From: a virus
DNA length: 42,294 nucleotides
Strand: one strand, 5' to 3'
UHGV virus genome: UHGV-2027207
In this document: positions 4,052 to 42,234 of the stretch, piece after piece
How the letters are laid out: each line of letters opens with the position of its first letter
Numbering within the stretch: position 1 is the first letter of the stretch
Made by a program: the position numbers and the translations under genes
The notes under the pieces: model-generated
The model's database searches: none
What the model saw: the letters and a program-made list of their open reading frames with translations, nothing else
Told to the model about the DNA's origin: nothing

Positions 4052-5638
4052 CTATTGTATATCATTGAAAATGTTCGCGTACTCTGTTCCTGCTAATGCG
4101 TTCATTAAATATGGTTTGATTGACTCATTGTCTCCGTTACGTGCAATCTTCAAACCAGTTAGCACACGTGCTTTACTTGTACGTTTTTCTTCAAATCCTT
4201 GCTTCAGCAGTAGTTCCTTCATGGTACGCCAATTCATTGATTTATTAATATTGTTTTCTTTTGTATATATATTAAAGATATTTTTTAGTAGGGTTAGGTT
4301 AACACTACCTTCTTTATCTTCAACAAGTACAGGTACTTCACTCAAAAACTCTTTAGATGGATCATTTGATTCAATATAGGCTTTCTTGAAGGCAATCATA
4401 TCTTCTGTCTCTGTGAATGGGTTTTCACCATTTGTACCAGCGTCTAAAATCTTTTTGAATTGCTGAATACAGAACCATGCAAATTTGCCTAGTTGTTCTT
4501 TTGACTCACGTTCTTCACGTTGTTTGTTAAACTCATTAATGCGTTCACGTGCTTCTGGTGTGTCAAGATTGGTGTTGAAATTTAAAATTAAAATACGTCT
4601 ATACCATCCATTGGTACGGTCATTAAATGCAGGTAGTTCGTTCATTGAAAACATCAATTTCGCATAGTTGGTAAAGCTAAATGCGTCCTTACCCTTTTTC
4701 TCAGCATGAACGGCATCAAGACCTCCTGAAAGCTTTTTCAGTGTTTCAGTACCCTTCACAAAGTTGGCGCTTGAATCCGCTTCAAAGTTCAATAGTTTAT
4801 GGTGTAGTGACGCTTTGTCAAAACGATTGTTTTTATCTGCTAAGCTGTCTAGACCAACTGCAGAACTGTTTTTGAAGCCAATCAATTTGTTCATAATAAA
4901 TCCACCTACGTAAGACTTACCATTTGAGCCATTACCTAAAAGGTACAATATTGATTGATATTTGTACTCTCTATAATACATATAACCAATATACTCATAT
5001 AATGTCTGCGCTTGATCTTTCAATAGATAATCAATCCATTGTTTAGCTAATAACTCATCTGTTTCATCTGTCTTAATCAATGGATATGGTAGTTGGAGTG
5101 TATGATAATCTTCTAATCTGGTTTCTCTAATATCATTGGTTTTAAAGTCATATGTGCCATTCTCAAAGGCGATAATGTTTGGATTAGGATTGTCACCTAG
5201 TGGGGCATGTTCACCACGTGTCATGGAGCGATTAGCCAATTCATTAGCTAGTTTCTTCATTTCTTTACGAATTTCATTCCCAAATTCTGGATTTCTAAAT
5301 TGTGGTGTAAATTTTGGCGCTAAAATGTTCTCAAAGTACCAATCAGCATATTTGTAACTACCTAGATTTACCTCAGACCAGATACGTGTGTCTGCATTAT
5401 ACACATATGGAGCGTTTAAGTTGGGGTGTGCATACACATAGGCTAACTGATTAAATTTATCAATAAATAATTCTTGTTGGATTTCAAATTTTGGCTGCGT
5501 ACCGTCTTTACCTCCGTAGTACATTCTTCCTAATTCTGAATTGAAATCTACAAACTCCTCACTTGGAAAGTGTTTATTTGAAACAGGTAACAACTCTTCA
5601 ACAGGTGCTGAATAGTCTATTTTCGTTAATTCATTCAT
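4052..5638 (-). CDS. D5/P4-family primase-helicase NTPase (VirE-like SF3 helicase)
   Basis: Walker A LLGNGSNGKS, Walker B-like LNFEAD, size 528 aa. RBS AGGGAGG. Confidence 0.65.
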   Translation of the reverse strand: MNELTKIDYSAPVEELLPVSNKHFPSEEFVDFNSELGRMYYGGKDGTQPKFEIQQELFIDKFNQLAYVYAHPNLNAPYVYNADTRIWSEVNLGSYKYADWYFENILAPKFTPQFRNPEFGNEIRKEMKKLANELANRSMTRGEHAPLGDNPNPNIIAFENGTYDFKTNDIRETRLEDYHTLQLPYPLIKTDETDELLAKQWIDYLLKDQAQTLYEYIGYMYYREYKYQSILYLLGNGSNGKSYVGGFIMNKLIGFKNSSAVGLDSLADKNNRFDKASLHHKLLNFEADSSANFVKGTETLKKLSGGLDAVHAEKKGKDAFSFTNYAKLMFSMNELPAFNDRTNGWYRRILILNFNTNLDTPEARERINEFNKQREERESKEQLGKFAWFCIQQFKKILDAGTNGENPFTETEDMIAFKKAYIESNDPSKEFLSEVPVLVEDKEGSVNLTLLKNIFNIYTKENNINKSMNWRTMKELLLKQGFEEKRTSKARVLTGLKIARNGDNESIKPYLMNALAGTEYANIFNDIQ

Positions 5639-5710: not shown

Positions 5711-5893
5711 CTAAAAATATTTAGCAATTGATTCCACTGAGTCTTTTACATCTAATTGAGTACCACCTAACAGTATGACAATAGTATATTCCCACGCTTT
5801 GCTGTGATAGAATGCTGCAATGTGATTGATGTTTACATATACTATGGTTTCATCAATTCTTGTTAATGTGATTAGTTCGTTCATTTTATTCAT
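5711..5893 (-). CDS. hypothetical protein (start probably MNKMNEL)
   Basis: ORF. The track Met1 is a TTG inside the upstream gene. Confidence 0.4.
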   Translation of the reverse strand: MNKMNELITLTRIDETIVYVNINHIAAFYHSKAWEYTIVILLGGTQLDVKDSVESIAKYF

Positions 5894-6065
5894 AATACAC
5901 CTCAAATTCTAATACTTGGTCTTTTTGAATATGGGTTTTTACTTTATTGGTATTATCATATAAAATTAAATAATCATCTTCAAAGTAATATTTATCAATG
6001 TAATTAAATTCAGTTACTTCTATACCTTCTCCAGCATTGTATTTTGTCACTAATACTTTAAACAT
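5886..6065 (-). CDS. hypothetical protein, 59 aa (MFKVLVTKYNAGEG...)
   Basis: Not in the track. AAGGAGGA lies 7 nt upstream of ATG 6065. Confidence 0.45.
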   Translation of the reverse strand: MFKVLVTKYNAGEGIEVTEFNYIDKYYFEDDYLILYDNTNKVKTHIQKDQVLEFEVYYE

Positions 6066-7010: not shown

Positions 7011-7334
7011 CTATTTCCATTCCTCCAATTGTTTTAGAATTGTGTTGTAGTGGTTTTGCTGCTTCTTATATGCTTCTGCTGCTTCATATAACCTTGTTTT
7101 CACGTCTAATTTTAACTTTTCTTGTGTGATACCATTATACTTTGTCCAAGTATCATAGTCCATAACTTTTACTTCCATTCCCAATAATGTTGTAGGTAAC
7201 TCGCTAGACAGTGGCATTTTCACGATATATGGATTTTGTGTGATTGGTACATTCAGTTTTACATTTGTTAAGTCTTCAAATAGTTCAGGTGTTACCATAA
7301 TATACTCTTCTGTTGCTAATAATAGTTTTTCCAT
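7011..7334 (-). CDS. hypothetical protein
   Basis: ORF. Confidence 0.45.
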   Translation of the reverse strand: MEKLLLATEEYIMVTPELFEDLTNVKLNVPITQNPYIVKMPLSSELPTTLLGMEVKVMDYDTWTKYNGITQEKLKLDVKTRLYEAAEAYKKQQNHYNTILKQLEEWK

Positions 7335-7346
7335 TGTTTCTTCCTC

Positions 7347-7577
7347 CTATTTAAGCAATTCTTCTTTCAGTTTATAAAACTCAACTTTATTATCTAAATA
7401 CATATGATAGTATGTTCCAACAATCAGACTTAGTTTACTCATAGCCTTTTGTCGTTCCGTTGTTAGAGGTGCTTGTTTTGCTAATTTCTCAAGATATTCA
7501 AGTAGTTCGCTTTCTTGACCTCCATTTTCAATAATTTCTATGATTTTCAACCTAAAGGTAATTGGTGTTAGACTCAT
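7347..7577 (-). CDS. hypothetical protein
   Basis: ORF. RBS AGGAGG. Confidence 0.45.
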   Translation of the reverse strand: MSLTPITFRLKIIEIIENGGQESELLEYLEKLAKQAPLTTERQKAMSKLSLIVGTYYHMYLDNKVEFYKLKEELLK

Positions 7578-7607
7578 TCTTTTTCCTCCTAGTTTTTAGT
7601 GTGATTA

Positions 7608-7823
7608 TTATTTCCACTCGTTCTTGGGTTCAATTAACATTACAATTAGTGCCACATTTAATGATACGGTAAACGCTACTATCACAATCAGTAGTGGTAT
7701 AGTTGTTAGTAGTGAGTATTGTAGTATGTCAATAATTAGTACAATCGCGACTAGATCAAGACATACCAGGAAGATAAGTAACAATGAAACCAGTGTTCTT
7801 AATATTTTATCTTCGTTTTTCAT
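7608..7823 (-). CDS. small membrane protein (two TM helices)
   Basis: Highly hydrophobic, LVSLLLIFLVCLDLVAIVLII... Confidence 0.45.
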   Translation of the reverse strand: MKNEDKILRTLVSLLLIFLVCLDLVAIVLIIDILQYSLLTTIPLLIVIVAFTVSLNVALIVMLIEPKNEWK

Positions 7824-7832
7824 TGTTTCCTC

Positions 7833-8159
7833 CTATTTTTGAATGTCCATCAACTTGATAATTTTCTGCAATAATTCTTCGTCTTTAGTGAGAAAATGAA
7901 AGCGTTCTTGGTGCAAGTGATCTAACCAATGAAACCGTTCATTCAACTCGTTTAACTCTTTGATTATGATACGCATTTCTTTCTCAGATTGTTCTATTTT
8001 GTTATGTGTCTGCCAGTAGTTTTGTGTTCCATGATTTGACATATTACCTGGTTCGTTCATCTTCATTAACCTTTCAGTTGCTTTATCATGAGACTTAGAG
8101 AGTCGCTTGAACTCTCTAAGTTGTATTTTCATGATATCAGTGTAGTACTTGTCTAGCAT
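7833..8159 (-). CDS. hypothetical protein
   Basis: ORF. Confidence 0.45.
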   Translation of the reverse strand: MLDKYYTDIMKIQLREFKRLSKSHDKATERLMKMNEPGNMSNHGTQNYWQTHNKIEQSEKEMRIIIKELNELNERFHWLDHLHQERFHFLTKDEELLQKIIKLMDIQK

Positions 8160-8383
8160 AGTAACATTCCTTTCAGTTTTGAGTAGTCAATGGCTAATTC
8201 AGCTAAAACTGTACTGTCATTTGTGTCAGCCCATTCTAAAATGGTTTCTATTTCGTTGTCTAACCAATTTGAAACTTTACTAAAATCTTCGTCACGTTCT
8301 TCAGCTTCTGCTGCTAAGTCAATAAAATCGCTGTAAAGCATGTCTATTTTCTTTTGTAGTTTGTTGTATTTTTCGTGTGTCAT
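8153..8383 (-). CDS. hypothetical protein (start refined to MTHEKYNK)
   Basis: GAGGAGGA lies 8 nt before ATG 8383. The track N-terminal extension is a translation of the conserved leader. Confidence 0.5.
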   Translation of the reverse strand: MTHEKYNKLQKKIDMLYSDFIDLAAEAEERDEDFSKVSNWLDNEIETILEWADTNDSTVLAELAIDYSKLKGMLLC

Positions 8384-8415
8384 ATTATACTTCCTCCTCT
8401 TTATCTTATGAACTA

Positions 8416-8444
8416 AGTATAGCATGATTAGAAACCAGTGTCAA
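8416..8444 (-). promoter_or_regulatory. consensus sigma-A promoter TTGACA-N17-TGCTATACT + leader TAGTTCATAAGATAAAGAGGAGG
   Basis: Exact -35 and -10 hexamers with a 17-bp spacer on the reverse complement. Confidence 0.7.
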
Positions 8445-8866
8445 CAGAAAAGATTAAAAAATGTCACTAATTTTGTGTTTTTGTCACTATATGACACTAA
8501 ATTGACGTTTTTAAAATCGCGGTATCCCTTGATACTCTAAGGATTAGACCAGTTTAATGACAAAATGACAAAAAAAGTACCATACTCTTTATATATACTA
8601 TAATACTACATTATAATGTAGTAACTTTATTTTTTAATTAATATATATAATATTTTGTCATTTTGTCATTATAAAAATAAGAATGTAGGTATATCAATGG
8701 ATACAGCGTTTTAAGGTGTCAAAATTAATGACAAAACGCTGACAAAAACAAGCGATTTAGTGACAAAATAACCATTTTAGGCTGACTTTTTGTCACTAAT
8801 AACTGGTTTACTTAACTCACACAGTATCCCTCATCTATGATATAATAGAAACAAAGAGGAGGAGAT
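8426..8866. promoter_or_regulatory. divergent control region with about 13 TGACAAAA/TTTTGTCA sites and a 115-bp perfect dyad (8556-8670) centred on palindrome TACTACATTATAATGTAGTA
   Basis: AATGACAAAATGACAAAA (8556-8573) is the exact reverse complement of 8653-8670. Central 20-bp palindrome at 8604-8623. AT-rich. Confidence 0.6.
8836..8849 (+). promoter_or_regulatory. TG-extended -10 promoter TATGATATAATAGA for the plus-arm early genes
   Basis: An identical 14-mer recurs at 10346-10359. Confidence 0.55.
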
Positions 8867-9070
8867 ATGATGAAAGATAATATTATTGATCTATTAAAAC
8901 TTGCACTTAGTATCTTACTACTTGTAATAAGTATCATTGGTCTCTGTTATATTGCTATCTATTTAGGTATGAAATTACCATATGAATTATTCCATCAAGG
9001 TGATTGGGGCTTTGCAATTGCACAACTGGTTATTGTGTGGAGCTGGCTATTAGGAGGTAAACGTAAATGA
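8867..9070 (+). CDS. small membrane protein
   Basis: RBS GAGGAGGAG. Two hydrophobic helices. Confidence 0.5.
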   Translation: MMKDNIIDLLKLALSILLLVISIIGLCYIAIYLGMKLPYELFHQGDWGFAIAQLVIVWSWLLGGKRK

Positions 9071-9669: not shown

Positions 9670-10065
9670 ATGATCCAACGTAAGTGTGCAGTATCTTCAT
9701 GTCGTAATAAAGTAGAGTTACCAGAAAGATACTGTGAAGCACATCAAGGACACAACAACAGTCAGTACAATAAACATGTAAGATACAATGATGATAACAA
9801 GAAGTACAGTAACTTCTATCATTCAACCCAATGGAGGAATGCACGTAAAGCCAAGCTAATGGAGCAACCACTCTGCGAGGTATGCTTAGCACAAGGCAAG
9901 TACACCAACGCTGACATGGTTCACCATTGTAAATATGAATTAAGAAGTCCAAATGGATGGAAACATAGACTTGATTTAAATAACTTGGAGTCAATCTGTT
10001 ACGAGTGTCACAACAAGGAAGAACACAGCTACAGCTGGAAAAATAGAGGTAGGGAACAGCGCTAA
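9670..10065 (+). CDS. HNH endonuclease (terminase/cos-associated type)
   Basis: CEVCL...HH..Y.....N...NL..IC..CHN; located just upstream of terS. RBS GGAAGGAG. Confidence 0.75.
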   Translation: MIQRKCAVSSCRNKVELPERYCEAHQGHNNSQYNKHVRYNDDNKKYSNFYHSTQWRNARKAKLMEQPLCEVCLAQGKYTNADMVHHCKYELRSPNGWKHRLDLNNLESICYECHNKEEHSYSWKNRGREQR

Positions 10066-10413
10066 ATCAACAGCCACGCAGCCAAAATTATTTTAGGGAG
10101 AGCAAAAATGTTTTTACCCCCCTACCTTTTTATAACGAATTAATCGCTGACCCCTCCTCTTCGTACGAAATTCTAAAAATGAACTTTCAAAAACGCCCTT
10201 TTCCCTCGTAAAACGTCATTTACAACTGGTTTCTTGTGTTGAAAATTAAGGATTCCTGGTGCGTAGGTGGTGTTATTTCGCTTATACGATTGTTCCCCCT
10301 ATAAACATGATTGAACCCTGGTTTCTCTACACAGGATTCTTTTTATATGATATAATAGAGCTATATAAGGGAGTTAGCCGTTAACTCAAAAATAAAATAA
10401 GGGAGGTTATACA
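10066..10413. other. candidate cos/packaging site region
   Basis: 348-bp non-coding stretch with C-runs (CCCCCC, GACCCCTCCTCTTCG) between the HNH and terS-side genes, at the HK97-like position. Confidence 0.3.
10346..10359 (+). promoter_or_regulatory. TG-extended -10 promoter TATGATATAATAGA
   Basis: Exact repeat of 8836-8849. Confidence 0.5.
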
Positions 10414-10596
10414 ATGCCTGCACCAAAACCAGTGTACGTAAAAGATTTATCAACTGGGCAGACACGCAAATTCAAATCACAATTCGCAGCAGATGATTTC
10501 TATAATAAGAAGCGTGGCTACTTTAAGGATATTAAAACAAAATTAGGCGGACGCAATCGTCACTTTGAAATTACAGAAGCCCCAAAGGAGGGTTAA
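10414..10596 (+). CDS. small basic protein
   Basis: RBS GGGAGG. Confidence 0.45.
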   Translation: MPAPKPVYVKDLSTGQTRKFKSQFAADDFYNKKRGYFKDIKTKLGGRNRHFEITEAPKEG

Positions 10597-17864: not shown

Positions 17865-18554
17865 ATGATTAATAAAACTTACACCGTATATATGCATAAG
17901 AATAAAAGTAATGGTAAAGTATATGTGGGTATTACTAGTCAGAAGCCAGAACATAGGTGGCGTAATGGTAATGGATATCGTGGAATGATGTTCATGAATG
18001 CTATTAAGAAGTATGGGTGGGATAATTTTGAACATTTAATATTACATGAAGGATTGACACGTGAAGAAGCAATTAGTAAAGAGATTGAAACTATTGATAA
18101 GTATCAGTCAAGAAATAGACTTTTTGGATATAATAGGGATATTGGTGGAGGTTGCAATCTACATTCATTAGATACTCGCAAACTGATTGGTAGTTACCAT
18201 GTGGGTAAGACACTTGATGATGAACATAAAGAAATCTTACGTAAGATACATTCACTAGACAACTATTCTAATTGGTCAGAGGCTAAAAAGAAATATCACG
18301 CTAAGGGTAAATCAGGAGCTAATAATCCTAATTATGGTAACTCAGCAAGCGTTGAAAGTAGGATTAAAATGAGGAACGCCAAGAAGAGTGTTCCGTTTTA
18401 TGCCATAGATTCTGATGGTAATATTACAGAGTGGAATTATCTACGTGAGTGTGCAAGTGCATTAAATTTACAACATACTAATATAAGTAGATGCCTACGT
18501 GGATTAAGTAGAAAACACAAAGGTTATACTTTTAAATATAAGGAGAGTGAATGA
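17865..18554 (+). CDS. GIY-YIG homing endonuclease
   Basis: YTVYMHKNKSNGKVYVGIT...RW.NG.GY. AAGGAGG 6 nt upstream. Inserted between tail genes. Confidence 0.8.
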   Translation: MINKTYTVYMHKNKSNGKVYVGITSQKPEHRWRNGNGYRGMMFMNAIKKYGWDNFEHLILHEGLTREEAISKEIETIDKYQSRNRLFGYNRDIGGGCNLHSLDTRKLIGSYHVGKTLDDEHKEILRKIHSLDNYSNWSEAKKKYHAKGKSGANNPNYGNSASVESRIKMRNAKKSVPFYAIDSDGNITEWNYLRECASALNLQHTNISRCLRGLSRKHKGYTFKYKESE

Positions 18555-25126: not shown

Positions 25127-25654
25127 ATGGAAGAAATTTGGAAAGATATTAAAGGATATGACGGTATTTATCAAGTTAGTACTATGGGAAGGGTGAAGAG
25201 CCTAAAGCATTCTAAGGAAGGTAAGCTACTCAAAGGACGAGTTACAGGTAAAGGTTATTTATCAGTAGTCTTATTTAGAAATTCAGTTAGAAAATCAAAT
25301 AGTATCCATCGTTTAGTAGCTCAAGCTTTCATACCAAACCCTGAAAATAAACCTGAGGTTAATCACATTGACGAAAATAAACTTAATAATGATGTAAGCA
25401 ATTTAGAATGGGTTACCTCAAAAGAAAATAGTAATCATGGAACTAGAAACCTCAGAATACATCAAAACAAAGCTGTAACATACAATAGGAAACCTATTGT
25501 ATGTGTAACAAATGGTTTAACATATGCAAGCTTAACTGATGCTTGCAAAAGTTTAGGAGTAACAAAACCCCATGTATGTTCAGTATTAAAAGGTAAACGT
25601 AAGACAACAAAAGGATATATTTTTAAATACTTAAATGAAGGAGATAATAAATAA
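25127..25654 (+). CDS. HNH homing endonuclease (NUMOD4 + HNH_3)
   Basis: MEEIWKDIKGYDGIYQVSTMGRV...HRLVAQAF...NHIDENK.NN..NLEW. AAGGAGG 7 nt upstream. Confidence 0.85.
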   Translation: MEEIWKDIKGYDGIYQVSTMGRVKSLKHSKEGKLLKGRVTGKGYLSVVLFRNSVRKSNSIHRLVAQAFIPNPENKPEVNHIDENKLNNDVSNLEWVTSKENSNHGTRNLRIHQNKAVTYNRKPIVCVTNGLTYASLTDACKSLGVTKPHVCSVLKGKRKTTKGYIFKYLNEGDNK

Positions 25655-33274: not shown

Positions 33275-33303
33275 AGTATAACACCTCAGTTAAGAGGTGT
33301 CAA
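33275..33303 (-). promoter_or_regulatory. consensus promoter TTGACA-N17-TGTTATACT with a palindromic spacer (ACACCTC..GAGGTGT)
   Basis: The -35 overlaps the HNH stop. Same module as 42265-42293. Confidence 0.65.
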
Positions 33304-33836
33304 TGGCTTTTATTTAATATAATAAATCTTTTATTCTCACCACCCCTTTGATCTAGATTATTAAAGTATGCTGAATTTAGATTGAAAAAATGTGTTGCTT
33401 CAATAAGCGATTCAAATTCATATTCTTTCTTGTTTGATTTATCCAGTATATTAATATTAATCTTGTTGTAATCTTTATTGATTGACTGTTCTAACATCGT
33501 AGCCCATCTTAAATTTTCAACTCTATTATCTATTTTATTACGATTAATATGATCAACGGTTGGTTTGTTATCTGGATTAGGTATAAAAGATTCTGCTACT
33601 AAGCGATGAACTTTCATATTTTGATTTTTACTGCCACTGTGTACCATATGGTATCCGTATGCATCCATACGATTTTTCAATGTCCTGTGACGAGTAATGT
33701 TTCGCACTATACCTAATGTTGATATAGTGTATTTATCACCATATGAGTTACTATATTTTAACCTTTTACTCAATATAGTTTTTGACTTCTGGGAATGTAT
33801 ATCCAAGTTTTTTAAATTTACGGTGAGCCTCCTCAA
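33300..33836 (-). CDS. HNH homing endonuclease (NUMOD4-like + HNH_3), TTG start, overlapping the DNA polymerase 3' end by 71 nt
   Basis: HRLVAESFIPNPDNKPTVDHINRNKIDNRVENLRW. GGAGGA 6 nt before the TTG. Confidence 0.75.
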   Translation of the reverse strand: MRRLTVNLKNLDIHSQKSKTILSKRLKYSNSYGDKYTISTLGIVRNITRHRTLKNRMDAYGYHMVHSGSKNQNMKVHRLVAESFIPNPDNKPTVDHINRNKIDNRVENLRWATMLEQSINKDYNKININILDKSNKKEYEFESLIEATHFFNLNSAYFNNLDQRGGENKRFIILNKSH

Positions 33837-36057
33837 TTCTAATCCTCCATTCTATACCTAACCACAGTTCCAGTGTATCTTCCACTTGGTTTATATAGTA
33901 CTCTTTATCAACATCATCAATAGTTATCCATCCTTCACCAATGGCTTCATTGTCAATAGCATAATACTCAGGTGCATTAGGCAAGCCTTTAGTGTAAGAA
34001 TCATTTCCAACAATTGTAGTACCTTCCTCTTCAATAACAGCTCCACGTTTTACTTTAAATATTTCAACAGCTTTATTAGGGTCTTTAATTGCAAAAACAC
34101 GATTCACTTTTTGTGCTTTCCGTTCATTACCATAAACATCACGTACAATAGTATCATCAAAAGTATATCCTGTTTTAGTAATCATTTGGAATTGACGTAG
34201 TTCATCACATTCGTTGATAAACTCTTTATAATCTTTACCAGCAACTACATAGTTAATGAACGCATTTGAAACAATCGCTTTAGAAACTTTCAATCCATTT
34301 GTTAGACCAATAGCGCCTTTAAACTTCACTTTACCGTCTGATGTAACTGCCAAGTAATTATTGACGTCCTTCTGGAAAATGGCTTTAAAAGGATCATCAT
34401 CTAAGGTGTAACCTGTTCGTTTCATCCAATCATTTGCGATCTCATCAATGGCGTTCTCATCTTCTTCACTAAATGGGATATAATAATGAGCGTCTGTATT
34501 TGATTGAATGATAGTAGCATGGTCTTCAATCTTTTCTAGTAAATCCCACATTGCCATTTGACCTGTGATACAAACAAGTAATCGCATGCGTGGATCATAC
34601 AATTTGTTAAACTCAGCTCCCATTGCTCCATATTTAGTATTTAGAGGTAGTTTATAACCATTAATTAATAGCTTGGTTGGAATTTTTACCCCTTTAATTT
34701 CAGTAAATTCCTTATTTGAGTATTTAGCCTCCATACGTTCATCAAGTAACATTTGATAAATATGCCGTTTGTCTTCTGGAATGTTTCGTGATAAGTAGTC
34801 AAATAAAACCATCGTATTAGGATAAAGTGAACCTACGTCACGTGCGTGGAAGTTACCTACATGAATAAATGACTCTTTTGCACCATGGATACCACCTACT
34901 CCCAAAACCTCTGTTACGTCTCTACGTGGCACATCTAATGAAATACTTGCATGACCTTTATCATTAGCTTCAAACTCATTTTTCATAAATGCCTGACGAA
35001 TGGTCTCTGACTCAATTGTGAACCCTTCTGGTAATTCATACTTATCTAATTCGTCACCTCTGTCAGGTGTCTTTTCAGCACCTAATAGTTCAGCAGTCAA
35101 GTTTGCGTTTGTCATTGATAGAGCCATTTTATCTAAACCAAAGTATAGTGCAATTGCAGCCTTAGCTACTAGCATCCCTATGTTTTGTTCAAAACGTTTT
35201 TCAGTAGCTAACACGTCATTTTTACAATATAGCTCATTCAACACTTGCTCTTCTTCAGTTAATTCTCTGTCTAAATCAAAGTCTACTTCAGTTTCTTTAA
35301 TATTAATACCCATGAAAGCACTATGTTCTTTCAAACTAAAACCTCTATTGTCTTGATACAAATCCATTCCAAAAAGTGGTGTTTTCTTAGTATCAAACAT
35401 TTTATATACTAACGCTCTATCGTCACTTTCAATGATTGCTTTTGACACATGAAATGGGTTTTTACCTTGTAAATAAGCACGCATGACATTTGAGTCATAT
35501 GAGTGTGAGTTATAACCTACAAACAAGGAATCTCTATTTGCTAGATAGAACTTGCGTAAAGCATCTAAATCATTATGAATAACTGTCCATTCTTTAGTGA
35601 AGTAATCTCTAAAGACAAATAAATTATCTTTTTTAAATACTTCAATGTCATAAATATAAATCGTTTGATTCGTTAATGCTTTGTTTGGTTTTTCAGGTAA
35701 GTTGTCAACAACTCCTCCTTTCTGATTGATGGTTACATTTGGAAAACCATTGTTGTATTTTAGAGTAATATTTAACTCCTGGCCTACTTGAATATCTTTC
35801 CATATTTCCCAATCTTGTTTGCGGAACTTCATAATATAAAATGTAGCGTCACGCCCATCATTTGTGCTACGTACTTTGATCTCTTTCATTTTTTTACCTT
35901 TTGCAGATAAGCGTTCCTCTGCTTTAATCACTACCACTTGATGAACGCCTTCTACTAGTGGATCAAAACTTTTTCCATTACCTGCAAGTGCTGCAAATAT
36001 TTCTAACAATTTACTTGCTAACTTCTCAGCACCTTGAAATTCTGCAATATTTTTCAT
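33766..36057 (-). CDS. family B DNA polymerase (3'-5' exonuclease + polymerase)
   Basis: Exo I YDIE; motif A DVGSLYPNTM; motif B K...N..YG; motif C NTDA. Confidence 0.8.
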   Translation of the reverse strand: MKNIAEFQGAEKLASKLLEIFAALAGNGKSFDPLVEGVHQVVVIKAEERLSAKGKKMKEIKVRSTNDGRDATFYIMKFRKQDWEIWKDIQVGQELNITLKYNNGFPNVTINQKGGVVDNLPEKPNKALTNQTIYIYDIEVFKKDNLFVFRDYFTKEWTVIHNDLDALRKFYLANRDSLFVGYNSHSYDSNVMRAYLQGKNPFHVSKAIIESDDRALVYKMFDTKKTPLFGMDLYQDNRGFSLKEHSAFMGINIKETEVDFDLDRELTEEEQVLNELYCKNDVLATEKRFEQNIGMLVAKAAIALYFGLDKMALSMTNANLTAELLGAEKTPDRGDELDKYELPEGFTIESETIRQAFMKNEFEANDKGHASISLDVPRRDVTEVLGVGGIHGAKESFIHVGNFHARDVGSLYPNTMVLFDYLSRNIPEDKRHIYQMLLDERMEAKYSNKEFTEIKGVKIPTKLLINGYKLPLNTKYGAMGAEFNKLYDPRMRLLVCITGQMAMWDLLEKIEDHATIIQSNTDAHYYIPFSEEDENAIDEIANDWMKRTGYTLDDDPFKAIFQKDVNNYLAVTSDGKVKFKGAIGLTNGLKVSKAIVSNAFINYVVAGKDYKEFINECDELRQFQMITKTGYTFDDTIVRDVYGNERKAQKVNRVFAIKDPNKAVEIFKVKRGAVIEEEGTTIVGNDSYTKGLPNAPEYYAIDNEAIGEGWITIDDVDKEYYINQVEDTLELWLGIEWRIRIEEAHRKFKKLGYTFPEVKNYIE

Positions 36058-36964: not shown

Positions 36965-37657
36965 TTAAAATGGTAACTCTTCTTCTGATACTGATTCTTT
37001 TTGGTCATATGGGTCTAATGGTTGTGCTTCTAACCATCCATATGGTGATTTAGGGTCTAACATATTTTTATTCACAGTGCAGTCTACAACCATTCCAATT
37101 GCCATATCTGCTGTATCCCAGGTTACATTTACGTCTTCAAATAATTCATTAAATCTCGCTTTTGCTTTTGCAAGTTTAGCTTGGTTAGGAATAAATTTGT
37201 TCAATTTCTCAATATATACTCCTGAGTTGAAGTTGAAAGAGTAGTATTTACCTTCATGTTCTACAACTACCGCACGTCCTTTGGCACTGTCTTTAATTTC
37301 AACAATTGGAACTTGTTTTAACCGTTTTAGTGAGACCAGTGGCTTCTCAATCTTTTTGAATGATGTACCTTCTTCAAAGTAGGCTTTACCTGTTTCTTCA
37401 TCTACATACATTTCTAATTCTTTATCTTCAAGATTATCAAACGATCCACCTAACATTTCTAAGGCTTTAGCTAATCGTTCTTTAGCTTTTGTATCTTCAT
37501 CTGTGAACTCTCTCCATGTTTTAGAGTCTTTATCATATGATTTTTTGAATACTGCAGCGTCATAGATAGCGCTATAATCTTCGCTGGCTACCTGTAATTT
37601 CACACTAATATCATCTTCCTCTGCGCTAACAATAATTACTTTTTTCAATTCTGACAT
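36965..37657 (-). CDS. SSB-like / DUF2815-like protein candidate with an acidic C-terminal tip (SEEELPF)
   Basis: The C-terminal tail resembles the SSB DDDIPF partner-binding tip. Sits beside a DUF1351-like gene. Has its own promoter. Confidence 0.35.
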   Translation of the reverse strand: MSELKKVIIVSAEEDDISVKLQVASEDYSAIYDAAVFKKSYDKDSKTWREFTDEDTKAKERLAKALEMLGGSFDNLEDKELEMYVDEETGKAYFEEGTSFKKIEKPLVSLKRLKQVPIVEIKDSAKGRAVVVEHEGKYYSFNFNSGVYIEKLNKFIPNQAKLAKAKARFNELFEDVNVTWDTADMAIGMVVDCTVNKNMLDPKSPYGWLEAQPLDPYDQKESVSEEELPF

Positions 37658-38543: not shown

Positions 38544-38700
38544 TCTCTTCATCCTTCATTTTAAGACGTTTATATTCTACAGCAAAGATTTCATCAATTG
38601 TATAATTGATTTTCAAAAGCCATTTGTATTTTTCAATTAGATCAAACAACTGGTTTTCAGTATAACCATAGTCTAATTTTAAAAGTGTTTTATAGTTCAT
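38536..38700 (-). CDS. 54-aa hypothetical protein (MNYKTLLKLDYGYTENQ...)
   Basis: Not in the track. ATGA overlaps with both neighbours. Confidence 0.4.
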
Positions 38701-38921
38701 ACTCTATCACCTTCCAATTCAATTGTCATTCCTTCATCTCCATCTCCTAGGGTTGGTGTAATCCATGTAACAACTCGTTCTCCATACTTACCAACAAGCT
38801 CATCTATTGTATATCTAGGTGTGTCATAATAAAACCTCGTATCATTTCCAAATATAACTTCTATTAACCCATTATCCTCTAGCAGATGTGCTACATCATT
38901 CACTGTAAGTTTCTTAGTCAT
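38697..38921 (-). CDS. hypothetical protein
   Basis: RBS GGAGGAG. Confidence 0.45.
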   Translation of the reverse strand: MTKKLTVNDVAHLLEDNGLIEVIFGNDTRFYYDTPRYTIDELVGKYGERVVTWITPTLGDGDEGMTIELEGDRV

Positions 38922-39185: not shown

Positions 39186-39950
39186 TCATCTTATTAGCCA
39201 TTTGTCAACATCCTTTTTGGTAATTTTTCCTTTTGATTTTTTAATCAACCCCTCAAATGTTCTGTATGTTTCTGACTGGTGTAGCTCTACATTAATCATA
39301 TCATGTTTACCAAATTTGTCAACAAATAACTCCCGATCTGTTGTACTTAAGTGGCGATATGAACCTGAGCTGAACACATCATATCCAGTGTGTGTTTTCG
39401 TTGATTCATAAAACTCAATTACTTTAGGGTCATAATTAGCTTCTAAAAGAATAATATCAAGTTTTAACTCATTTGTCAATAGATAAGTTTCATAATCTAC
39501 TAAAGTACTCAAATCAGTAGCATAAATTAAAGTTTGTGAAGGACTCTCTAGAATGAAACCATGTGTTTCTGTGTAGTCTTCAGCTGCACCATGATAATTC
39601 TGAAGTGTTGTGAATTTTATATCTCCAATTTGAAACTGGAAATCATCTTTGAATGTTATGTCTACACTACTAAGTTTGCGTTTTAGTAGTTCATTGTTAA
39701 CAGTTTCGTTAGATAATATTTTAATGTGGGGAAAGTTTTCTCTAATCTTTTTGTATGTTGTATATACAAGGTGATCCTGGTGTTTATGGGTAATAAATAC
39801 AAATTGTTTATCATATAAATATGGCTCAATATATTTGTATGGCTTTCCAATATCAATTAGGAACCCAATGTTCTCATAATAAATTGACGCTGAGTTTCCT
39901 TTTGAACCGCTAAAATGTATTTTAAAAGTGAATGACGTATTCAAATACAT
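39186..39950 (-). CDS. MBL-fold metallo-hydrolase (putative nuclease)
   Basis: HKHQDH (HxHxDH) motif; N-terminal FSGSKGNS. Confidence 0.7.
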   Translation of the reverse strand: MYLNTSFTFKIHFSGSKGNSASIYYENIGFLIDIGKPYKYIEPYLYDKQFVFITHKHQDHLVYTTYKKIRENFPHIKILSNETVNNELLKRKLSSVDITFKDDFQFQIGDIKFTTLQNYHGAAEDYTETHGFILESPSQTLIYATDLSTLVDYETYLLTNELKLDIILLEANYDPKVIEFYESTKTHTGYDVFSSGSYRHLSTTDRELFVDKFGKHDMINVELHQSETYRTFEGLIKKSKGKITKKDVDKWLIR

Positions 39951-40458
39951 AACCTCCTGTTTGTTTTAATTTACCTTTTAAAACTTTTGTAATACTTGAG
40001 GGGTCTAATCCCAATTGTCTACCACATTCTTTAGTACTATAAAAAGTTTTGGTTTCACCAGTTTTGAGATTAGTTGTTAGAATTGGGATACTTAGCGTTT
40101 TACTCATTCTTTCATTATGCGTTCCATAATTAACATTTTCCTTTGCTGTAACCCATTCCAGATTTGAAACCCTGTTGTTTGTTTTATCCTCGTCAATATG
40201 ATTTACCTGTGGTTTATTATCAGGGTTTAGGATAAACGCCTGAGCTACTAGACGATGTACTCTAAATGTTTTTAATTTTGACTTTATTGATAACGTTACT
40301 ATTGGATATCCCCAATCATTCAGATAATTCTTTAAAACCTTACCTTTACGTACTCTACCTAACTTATCTATACTATCATAACTTCTAACTCTTCCTAAAT
40401 TACTAACTTGATAAATACCTTCATACCCTTTAATATCTTTCCAAATTTCTCCAATCAT
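39922..40458 (-). CDS. HNH homing endonuclease (NUMOD4 + HNH_3)
   Basis: MIGEIWKDIKGYEGIYQVSNLGRV...HRLVAQAF...NHIDEDKTNN..NLEW. Confidence 0.85.
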   Translation of the reverse strand: MIGEIWKDIKGYEGIYQVSNLGRVRSYDSIDKLGRVRKGKVLKNYLNDWGYPIVTLSIKSKLKTFRVHRLVAQAFILNPDNKPQVNHIDEDKTNNRVSNLEWVTAKENVNYGTHNERMSKTLSIPILTTNLKTGETKTFYSTKECGRQLGLDPSSITKVLKGKLKQTGGYVFEYVIHF

Positions 40459-41299: not shown

Positions 41300-41485
41300 A
41301 TAGTTTTGAATATCTGATAAATATCCAAATACCTCGCGCGCTGTATGAAAATCAACTCTATGAGTATCTTGTGGTTCATTAACATGAAAAACCTCTACAT
41401 AATATTTTAACTCAAATCTGGATTGACTAACTACTGTCGCACAGTATCCATTTGTAAACTCTGTGCTAAATAATTGTTTATCCAT
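41285..41485 (-). CDS. hypothetical protein
   Basis: ORF. Confidence 0.4.
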   Translation of the reverse strand: MDKQLFSTEFTNGYCATVVSQSRFELKYYVEVFHVNEPQDTHRVDFHTAREVFGYLSDIQNYKQKD

Positions 41486-42234
41486 CAGTTGTCCTCCATT
41501 CTACGTAGTTCACGCTTACGCACACTTTCATATGTTTGCATTACTTCATCCTCTGACAGCGGTGGAACACACCCTATCTGATTAACATACAGAGACCACA
41601 CACGTACCTCATCATGATTCAGTCCTGTAGCAAATAATTTACCAATTTGGGTGGTTAGCCAGATATTTCTTCCTCCTTCCCCACTACCTGCAATTATATC
41701 ACCTAATAGGGTTGCTGTCCACTTTCTCTCTCTCTTCTTATTCTTTTTTGTAATTGTTTTATCTGTGAACATCTCTAACCATTTCTCAGGTAGTTCTGCC
41801 ATTTCTACATCACGTGCTACCTCATAATATGTTCCATCAATTTTGCTAGGTGGTGCTAATATTATTCTGCCGTGTGTTTGAAAATCAACACCTTTTAGTT
41901 GAGGATGATTTTGAATGAATTGAGTGTCATTGTATTTCTCATCAAGTTTAAAATAATAATGGTAACCTCCACTTGGTGTCTTAACAACCTTAGTTTTTGG
42001 TAACTCAATGCCATAAGTATCCAAGAACTCTTTTAAGTTACCAAGACCATCTACTCCATTATGGTTGTCAATGTCAATGACTGCAATACCACTTGTTTTA
42101 CCAGTAGCATATGCAACATTTCCTCCTTCTGCTATCCATTGGTCAACTATTTTATCATCTTCTCCTCCAAATGCTCCTGCGACTAATGGTGCTTTACCAT
42201 TTTTCTTAATGCGTAGTCTTTTAATTTCTTTCAA
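41485..42234 (-). CDS. bifunctional primase-polymerase (AEP Prim-Pol domain)
   Basis: IAVIDIDNH...GYHYYF pattern. TTG start with AGGAGGA RBS. Confidence 0.65.
   Translation of the reverse strand: MKEIKRLRIKKNGKAPLVAGAFGGEDDKIVDQWIAEGGNVAYATGKTSGIAVIDIDNHNGVDGLGNLKEFLDTYGIELPKTKVVKTPSGGYHYYFKLDEKYNDTQFIQNHPQLKGVDFQTHGRIILAPPSKIDGTYYEVARDVEMAELPEKWLEMFTDKTITKKNKKRERKWTATLLGDIIAGSGEGGRNIWLTTQIGKLFATGLNHDEVRVWSLYVNQIGCVPPLSEDEVMQTYESVRKRELRRMEDN

Follow-up and report, generated by a model that had tools for sequence, protein, structure and literature searches.

The replication origins of the Staphylococcus aureus pathogenicity islands (SaPIs) consist of an AT-rich centre flanked on either side by two or more iterons, those of the two sides in opposite orientation, and are island-specific. 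The Rep proteins of these elements are superfamily 3 (SF3) helicases in which a C-terminal winged-helix domain reads 6–12 iterons, and it is supposed that a hexamer loads on either side unaided by a loader (PMC9371898). An arrangement of this kind, in which a self-loading helicase resembling PriRep5 acts with seven iterons of 10 bp that surround an AT-rich region, has been proposed for one genome, that of the Efquatrovirus phage Abitsa (Viruses, August 2026; PMC13517437). Here we describe the divergent intergenic gap at positions 8385–8866 of a 42.3-kb stretch of viral DNA (UHGV-2027207, 42,294 nucleotides, analysed at its full length and called the window below), which belongs to an Enterococcus siphophage of the IME-EFm1/IME-EFm5 group, related to Efquatrovirus, the nearest public relatives being EF36P1-3 from E. 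gallinarum. We consider it probable that this gap is the phage's bidirectional replication origin, of the SaPI type and read by the phage's own self-loading helicase, a reading supported by the finding that the class of repeats in the gap follows the C-terminal domain of the SF3 helicase alone and by a layout which fits that of SaPI Rep/ori.

Other described origins resemble the locus in single respects. In satellite phage P4 the alpha protein, a primase-helicase of the P4 family, binds repeated octamers at ori through its C-terminal winged-helix domain; its primase resides in the same polypeptide, and P4 needs a second cluster of repeats, crr, approximately 4.5 kb away. The ori of lactococcal phage c2 is a non-coding region between divergent early and late promoters which depends on a transcript and not on helicase-read iterons, and that of the S. 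thermophilus phage Sfi21 is non-coding and located beside a P4-like primase gene. With these non-coding origins of phages of lactic acid bacteria the window region shares, respectively, a divergent promoter gap and an association with a P4-type primase-helicase; no sequence similarity between either of them and the window region was found.

The gene on the left of the gap starts at an ATG at 8384, preceded by a ribosome-binding site, and the non-coding gap is therefore 8385–8866. It is organized as follows:

8385–8866, no strand: non-coding divergent intergenic region of 482 bp, the proposed origin together with promoters.
8459–8502, no strand: left outer iteron cluster, with a perfect TAGTGACAAAA at 8479–8489 (minus strand) and two degenerate sites (TGTCA at 8462–8466 and TGACA at 8492–8496).
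8555–8573, plus strand: left inner iteron pair TAATGACAAAATGACAAAA, which is the left arm of a 19-bp repeat; two sites 8 bp apart, facing the core.
8574–8652, no strand: AT-rich core of 79 bp with 14% G+C, a proposed DNA-unwinding element, holding a 20-bp palindrome.
8653–8671, minus strand: right inner iteron pair, the mirror of 8555–8573, facing the core and invariant in 10 aligned relatives.
8717–8798, no strand: right outer iteron cluster of four sites, namely TAATGACAAAA at 8726–8736 (plus), CGCTGACAAAA at 8737–8747 (plus), TAGTGACAAAA at 8758–8768 (plus) and TAGTGACAAAA at 8788–8798 (minus), with a weak TGTCA at 8717–8721.

The motif TGACAAAA is present in 12 copies in the window, counting both strands, against 4.7 expected (none of 100 shuffles reached 12), and nine of these 12 are clustered within 317 bp (8479–8795). 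Across the genome, the TGACA pentamer as such is no more frequent than expected (118 copies against 120). An earlier note on this DNA had reported about 13 TGACA/TGTCA cores in the gap, which our count bears out, with 13 located at 8439–8795 where approximately one would be expected per 360 bp. The repeats which it had listed do exist, several of them displaced by 1–2 positions: TGACAAAA starts at 8558, 8566, 8729, 8740 and 8761, and TTTTGTCA at 8479, 8653, 8661 and 8788. GTCACTA(A/T)T, said to occur three times, is found in the gap only twice, at 8463 and 8792. The iterons have the core RTGACR and the extended consensus TARTGACAAAA, mostly in this full form, and six of the seven perfect copies of the latter in the genome fall in the gap. 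The seventh, at 6042–6052 on the minus strand, is located inside open reading frame (ORF) 5886–6065, between the proposed origin and the helicase gene, and may be either a chance occurrence or an auxiliary site; the window therefore differs from P4, with its second cluster, in having a single cluster and one stray perfect site.

The inner pairs form an inverted repeat that is 100% complementary and, at 19 nt, one base longer than the 18 previously claimed; its arms are 79 nt apart, and 300 shuffles of the gap gave no inverted repeat longer than 12 nt. Within the core, 60-bp windows drop to 10–12% G+C, and the 20-bp palindrome TACTACATTATAATGTAGTA is where it had been described, at 8604–8623 with its centre at 8613/8614. 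This palindrome is only modestly unexpected, 71 of 5000 shuffled versions of the AT-rich core having reached its arm length. No DnaA box (with at most one mismatch) was detected in 8385–8866 and no Rep_3-like protein among the proteins scanned, and we therefore rejected both a DnaA-dependent origin and one of the iteron-plasmid (Rep_3) type. A scan of bacterial genomes with the 18-bp arm produced, among the matches listed, unrelated chance matches alone, and is uninformative with regard to satellites and prophages.

The proteins to which the proposed origin can be related are encoded in the leftward replication arm:

4052–5638, minus strand: D5-type SF3 helicase gene, 528 aa, with the Pfam domains D5_N and DUF5906; annotated as 'DNA primase'.
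4139–4405, minus strand: predicted winged-helix C-terminal domain of this helicase (approximately residues 412–500), the proposed determinant of iteron specificity.
41485–42234: Prim-Pol.
33766–36057: family-B polymerase.

Judged from its sequence, the element appears to have those defining features of a SaPI-type origin that could be checked, with the exception of position. As in SaPI1, SaPIbov1 and SaPI5, there is a D5/P4-type SF3 helicase, the best match of which is SaPI5 PriRep5, and there are nine perfect TGACAAAA sites in addition to weaker cores, the inner pairs flanking an AT-rich core. In contrast with the SaPIs, the element belongs to a virulent phage and not to a satellite, its iterons are longer (11-bp consensus) and overlap promoter elements, and its primase is encoded apart, by a Prim-Pol gene distant from that of the helicase; the SaPI origin, moreover, lies immediately 3' of the helicase gene, whereas about ten small genes separate the two in the window. 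Abitsa is of the same phage lineage as the window, which differs from it in having approximately 10–13 sites of another sequence class (RTGACR).

All the relatives retrieved have a gap of approximately 470–570 bp at the corresponding place, and most of their records have no gene in it, KEN22 and IME-EFm5 having short hypothetical calls. Across eight window-like relatives, 81% of the iteron columns are fully conserved, compared with 47% for the other parts of the gap and 41% for the AT-rich core. This better conservation of the iterons than of the DNA between them indicates that the sites themselves are under selection. The left inner pair 8555–8573 is conserved in these relatives, and the spacing of sites within clusters is kept (8, 11 and 21 bp), whereas the distance spanning the core differs between relatives (87–99 bp). 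The earlier note had read the region either as a replication origin or as a multi-site operator for a phage DNA-binding protein, the former being the reading which the evidence supports, and had named the absence of the repeats from syntenic relatives among the observations that would speak against its proposal; both repeats and spacing are conserved there.

In more divergent relatives the sequence of the repeats changes completely and the architecture does not, an AT-rich core flanked by two oppositely oriented groups of repeats being found in every iteron class. The repeat is GGTACMCAAAA in IME-EFm1 and LG62, most proteins of which are 80–99% identical to those of the window, YTGACAAG in phage 9184, RARAACA in E. 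faecalis phage EfaCPT1 and AAGCRTWACA in IME_EF3. In its own gap each family exceeds shuffles 5- to 100-fold, and it is almost absent from the gaps of the other classes. The gap of phage 9184 (L016 41515–42292) is longer, at 778 bp, and carries five tandem copies of GAGATACATTTGTT besides its YTGACAAG iterons; the ORF annotated in it (L016 41571–41873) may be spurious.

When the 67 proteins of the window were compared with six whole genomes, the SF3 helicase 4052–5638 alone followed the type of repeat, being 95–98% identical in genomes with RTGACR repeats and 29–31% identical in the others, and its product is the likely iteron binder on this evidence. The binders proposed earlier, the products of 10414–10596, 36965–37657 and 7011–8383, do not co-vary with repeat type, being either conserved whatever the repeat class or absent from close relatives, and were rejected as candidates. 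In phage 9184, two ORFs located between the helicase gene and the gap (5711–5893 and 7833–8159) are 75–82% identical to those of the window; as these intervening genes are conserved while helicase and gap have both changed, the two did not change as one linked block.

The determinant can be narrowed down further in phages that are natural chimeras. The helicases of EfaCPT1 and IME_EF3 are approximately 98.6% identical at residues 1–428 and approximately 50–60% identical in the last 100 or so, and their iterons differ completely. Seventeen E. faecalis-phage loci, of EfaCPT1 or IME_EF3 type, were scanned over 19 kb, every ORF included, for segments that discriminate between the two types; helicase residues 426–526 alone were more alike within a type (at least 96% identity) than between types (at most 62%). 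Among 39 loci drawn from phage records and IMG/VR, five clusters of helicase C-termini correspond to five families of repeats with zero exceptions: each gap contains 4–18 repeats of its own family and 0–2 of the others, own-family counts being far above shuffles in nearly every gap and weakest in DELF1 and in the SANTOR1-type locus L038. A metagenomic helicase 82% identical to that of the window is paired with a drifted repeat, TGACA/TAGACA. The co-variation thus suggests that the pairing of helicase and iterons is cognate and element-specific.

One apparent exception, in which near-identical EfaCPT1-type helicases seemed to be accompanied by differing repeats (TGTAGACA, in SANTOR1-type phages, versus GAAGAACA), was discounted, as SANTOR1-type gaps retain RARAACA. 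In these gaps (L038 890–1910; also L042 and L049) eight copies of AAAAGTGTAGACA, a second repeat family of 13 bp, are added to the RARAACA iterons, which adjoin the core, and the helicase is unchanged.

The helicase gene of class B is located near the gap in IME-EFm1 (L012 38650–40689) and directly adjacent to it in LG62 (L013 36070–37749), the gap being still on the upstream side of the gene in both. Class-B helicase and origin therefore form a contiguous cassette, as against a separation of 2.75 kb in the window, which suggests that insertion or movement affected the module as a whole.

Within class A, a protein specific to the TARTGACAAAA sub-type was sought and no consistent candidate was found, nor are there fixed helicase differences between the two sub-types. 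ORF 38697–38921 (minus strand, 74 aa, without a family match) occurs in the majority of relatives whose TARTGACAAAA arrays are regular; the IME-EFm5-like sub-type lacks it, as does L029, yet phage 9184 has a version with 47% identity, and it is at best a weak and imperfect lead to a partner of this sub-type.

The relation of the helicase to the SaPI proteins is also seen in its fold. Its sequence matches 7ola_A (SaPI5 PriRep5) in the PDB with E = 3e-10, and its AlphaFold model, with a mean predicted local distance difference test (pLDDT) score of 70, has the same protein (7OLA) as its best Foldseek match (E = 5e-11), with approximately 440 aligned columns and a template modelling (TM) score of 0.55–0.62 normalised by target. 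When modelled alone, the tail (residues 400–528) adopts an H-H-E-H-H-E-E topology with a core pLDDT of approximately 80–87. Its Foldseek matches are weak (all E >= 0.02), the best being to the matching part of the African swine fever virus (ASFV) D5-type primase-helicase and most of the others to winged-helix DNA-binding proteins (RFX, MarR, TubR and MecI; E >= 0.02). Distant homologues of the window helicase include proteins of Streptococcus phages.

The iterons share the gap with promoters and with a further set of conserved boxes:

8416–8444, minus strand: leftward promoter P_L, TTGACA (8444..8439), 17-nt spacer and TATACT (8421..8416), with TG before the -10; promoter scan, 11 of 12 matches.
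8526–8542, plus strand: short inverted repeat CCCTTGATACTCTAAGG, independent of iteron class.
8668–8697, minus strand: internal leftward promoter-like site, TTGATA, 18-nt spacer and TATAAT; promoter scan, 11 of 12 matches.
8838–8846, plus strand: rightward promoter P_R, extended -10 TGATATAAT, read from the sequence.

The hexamers of P_L are kept in relatives, and the stretch of P_R, with a conserved GTATCCCT box (8824–8831) immediately upstream of it, is invariant in relatives, those of other iteron classes included. The gene promoters had been placed outside the dyad; this holds for P_L, while a strong promoter-like site, 8697..8668 on the minus strand, lies inside it, and its -10 overlaps the right inner iteron pair and its predicted direction crosses the AT-rich core. 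As the iterons overlap elements of divergent promoters, binding of an initiator and transcription probably affect each other.

The repeats could accordingly be mainly operators, through which a phage protein, possibly an autoregulating helicase, switches P_L, the internal promoter and P_R, with replication starting elsewhere or without a fixed origin. Apart from the overlap at the internal site, this would fit the -35 element of P_L, which is itself a TGACA core, the position of the right outer cluster some 45–120 bp upstream of P_R, and the extra repeat families in the gaps of some relatives with unchanged helicase, which suggest that other DNA-binding activities are hosted there. We nevertheless regard it as quite improbable, since the sole co-varying protein segment is the tail of an SF3 helicase, which is not repressor-like, none of the small proteins encoded nearby matched a helix-turn-helix family, the candidate proteins of the earlier note show no co-variation, and inverted iteron pairs around a core of 14% G+C are the anatomy of an origin.

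The conserved boxes comprise an inverted repeat CCCTTG-N7-8-AAGG (CCTTG-N-AAGG), three copies of GTATCC(C/A)T, one of them directly upstream of the -10 of P_R, and ACCAGT/ACTGGT, their coordinates being 8526–8542, 8522–8529, 8697–8704, 8824–8831, 8546–8552 and 8803–8808. Four of the five iteron classes include relatives with boxes akin to 8526–8542, none having been found in phage 9184; these boxes are located to the left or to the right of the core, on one strand or the other. As the boxes are kept across nearly every iteron class, the helicase tail is probably not their reader.

Two promoter-like sites face each other across the core as mirror images, TTGATA-18-TTTAAT at 8529–8558 (plus) and TTGATA-18-TATAAT at 8697..8668 (minus), and a T-rich run, CTTTATTTTTT, follows the palindrome. 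The dyad might on this account give rise to a short RNA, or to two that converge, serving for instance as primer or antisense RNA; transcription would start at the two TTGATA-type sites and end at the central hairpin and T-run, and the repeats would be parts of the RNA, in the manner of the transcript-dependent origin of lactococcal phage c2. This is very improbable: an Rfam search over 8200–9000 returned chance-level matches only (best E = 0.37), a terminator scan found none, the core as single-stranded DNA folds no more stably than shuffles (z = -0.88), the 20-bp palindrome is not conserved in relatives as a strong hairpin, and the tracking of the repeats with the helicase tail would be left unexplained.

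The gap is located where gene orientation changes. The leftward arm lies on its left and resumes at the opposite end of the window; its replication genes are those given above, along with the following:

23–1339, leftward arm: SNF2-like helicase.

On its right are the rightward genes, consisting of small genes, HNH, terminase, head, tail and lysis genes. ORFs of HNH/NUMOD-type homing endonucleases (1323–1835, 17865–18554, 25127–25654, 33300–33836 and 39922–40458) have been gained or lost between close relatives, one of them being located amid the head-tail genes. The terminase genes lie 2 kb downstream of the gap, and one public record, vB_EhiS_268 (L008), begins inside the dyad, in the right inner pair, at a position equivalent to 8657 of the window; the repeats might thus be packaging sites at which the small terminase subunit binds (cos/pac). 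The start of this record, however, probably reflects a break in assembly at the inverted repeat and not a true end of the DNA. The linear-record ends of IME-EFm1 and Aramis map to window positions 10144–10154, 1.3 kb rightward, and the small terminase subunit of the window is 99% identical to that of IME-EFm1 despite their different repeats, which excludes a packaging site at the gap as a candidate. HK97-like cohesive ends have also been reported for the genus (PMC13517437), and we assign packaging a practically negligible probability. The segment 10144–10154 lies between an HNH gene (9670–10065) and ORF 10259–10384, and the gap of about 9 nt between the mapped ends (10145–10153) fits a cohesive-end (cos) site.

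Several points weigh against reading the gap as an origin of the SaPI type. The minimum of the cumulative GC skew is located at 8–9 kb, i.e., at the gap, which agrees with an origin there, but it is wholly confounded with gene orientation, which also flips at this place. The proposed origin lies 2.75 kb upstream of the start of the helicase gene (5638 versus 8385) and inside a promoter region, in a place other than that of the SaPI origin, and as its iterons overlap promoter elements, a regulatory role could account for part of their conservation. The second repeat family of SANTOR1-type gaps, which goes with an unchanged helicase, implies that in some phages other proteins also bind arrays in this gap. 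As regards the comparisons, the scan of EfaCPT1-type versus IME_EF3-type loci spanned 19 kb rather than whole genomes, the iteron pattern of each class was defined on a single member before being counted in the rest, and the loci compared are phylogenetically non-independent. Finally, the winged-helix assignment rests on a model of medium confidence (mean pLDDT 70) and on weak Foldseek E-values.

With these points taken into account, we infer that the helicase physically binds the gap, that the core melts and that the gap acts as an origin of SaPI type in the following manner. The iterons would be recognised, through their RTGACR core, by the C-terminal winged-helix domain of the phage's D5/P4-type SF3 helicase, and the inner pairs 8555–8573 and 8653–8671 would place one helicase hexamer on each flank of the 79-bp core, the outer clusters 8459–8502 and 8717–8798 contributing cooperative binding. 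The core would then melt, possibly helped by transcription across it from the internal leftward promoter, and the helicases would load themselves, after which Prim-Pol (41485–42234) and the family-B polymerase (33766–36057) would begin synthesis in both directions. It is also conceivable, if on balance unlikely, that the array doubles as origin and as an operator set by which the helicase-initiator times the switch between leftward-early and rightward expression, and that swapping of iterons and winged-helix domains makes replicon specificity groups; the class-independent boxes and the second repeat families would in that case mark further partners.

In conclusion, this kind of origin is already known, having been proposed for Abitsa, and the pairing of helicase tail and iteron class throughout the group appears to be the added observation; no report of it was found in the Abitsa paper or in the other literature searched. 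For a group of Enterococcus phages that are candidates for therapy, a probable start site and mode of replication have been located and a candidate protein–DNA pair named. The origin fragment may be of practical use in phage-derived vectors or as an origin-decoy resistance element, as known from dairy phages. The match between tail and iterons, including natural chimeras which differ in the last 100 or so residues alone, provides a ready system for studying how self-loading SF3 helicases read their origins.

The same pairing may account for the exchange of modules among these phages and, possibly, for replicon incompatibility between them. If specificity groups do exist, with at least five classes, some of them differing in the helicase tail alone, they could spare co-infecting phages competition between their initiators, and could allow phages to escape from satellites or defences aimed at the origin.

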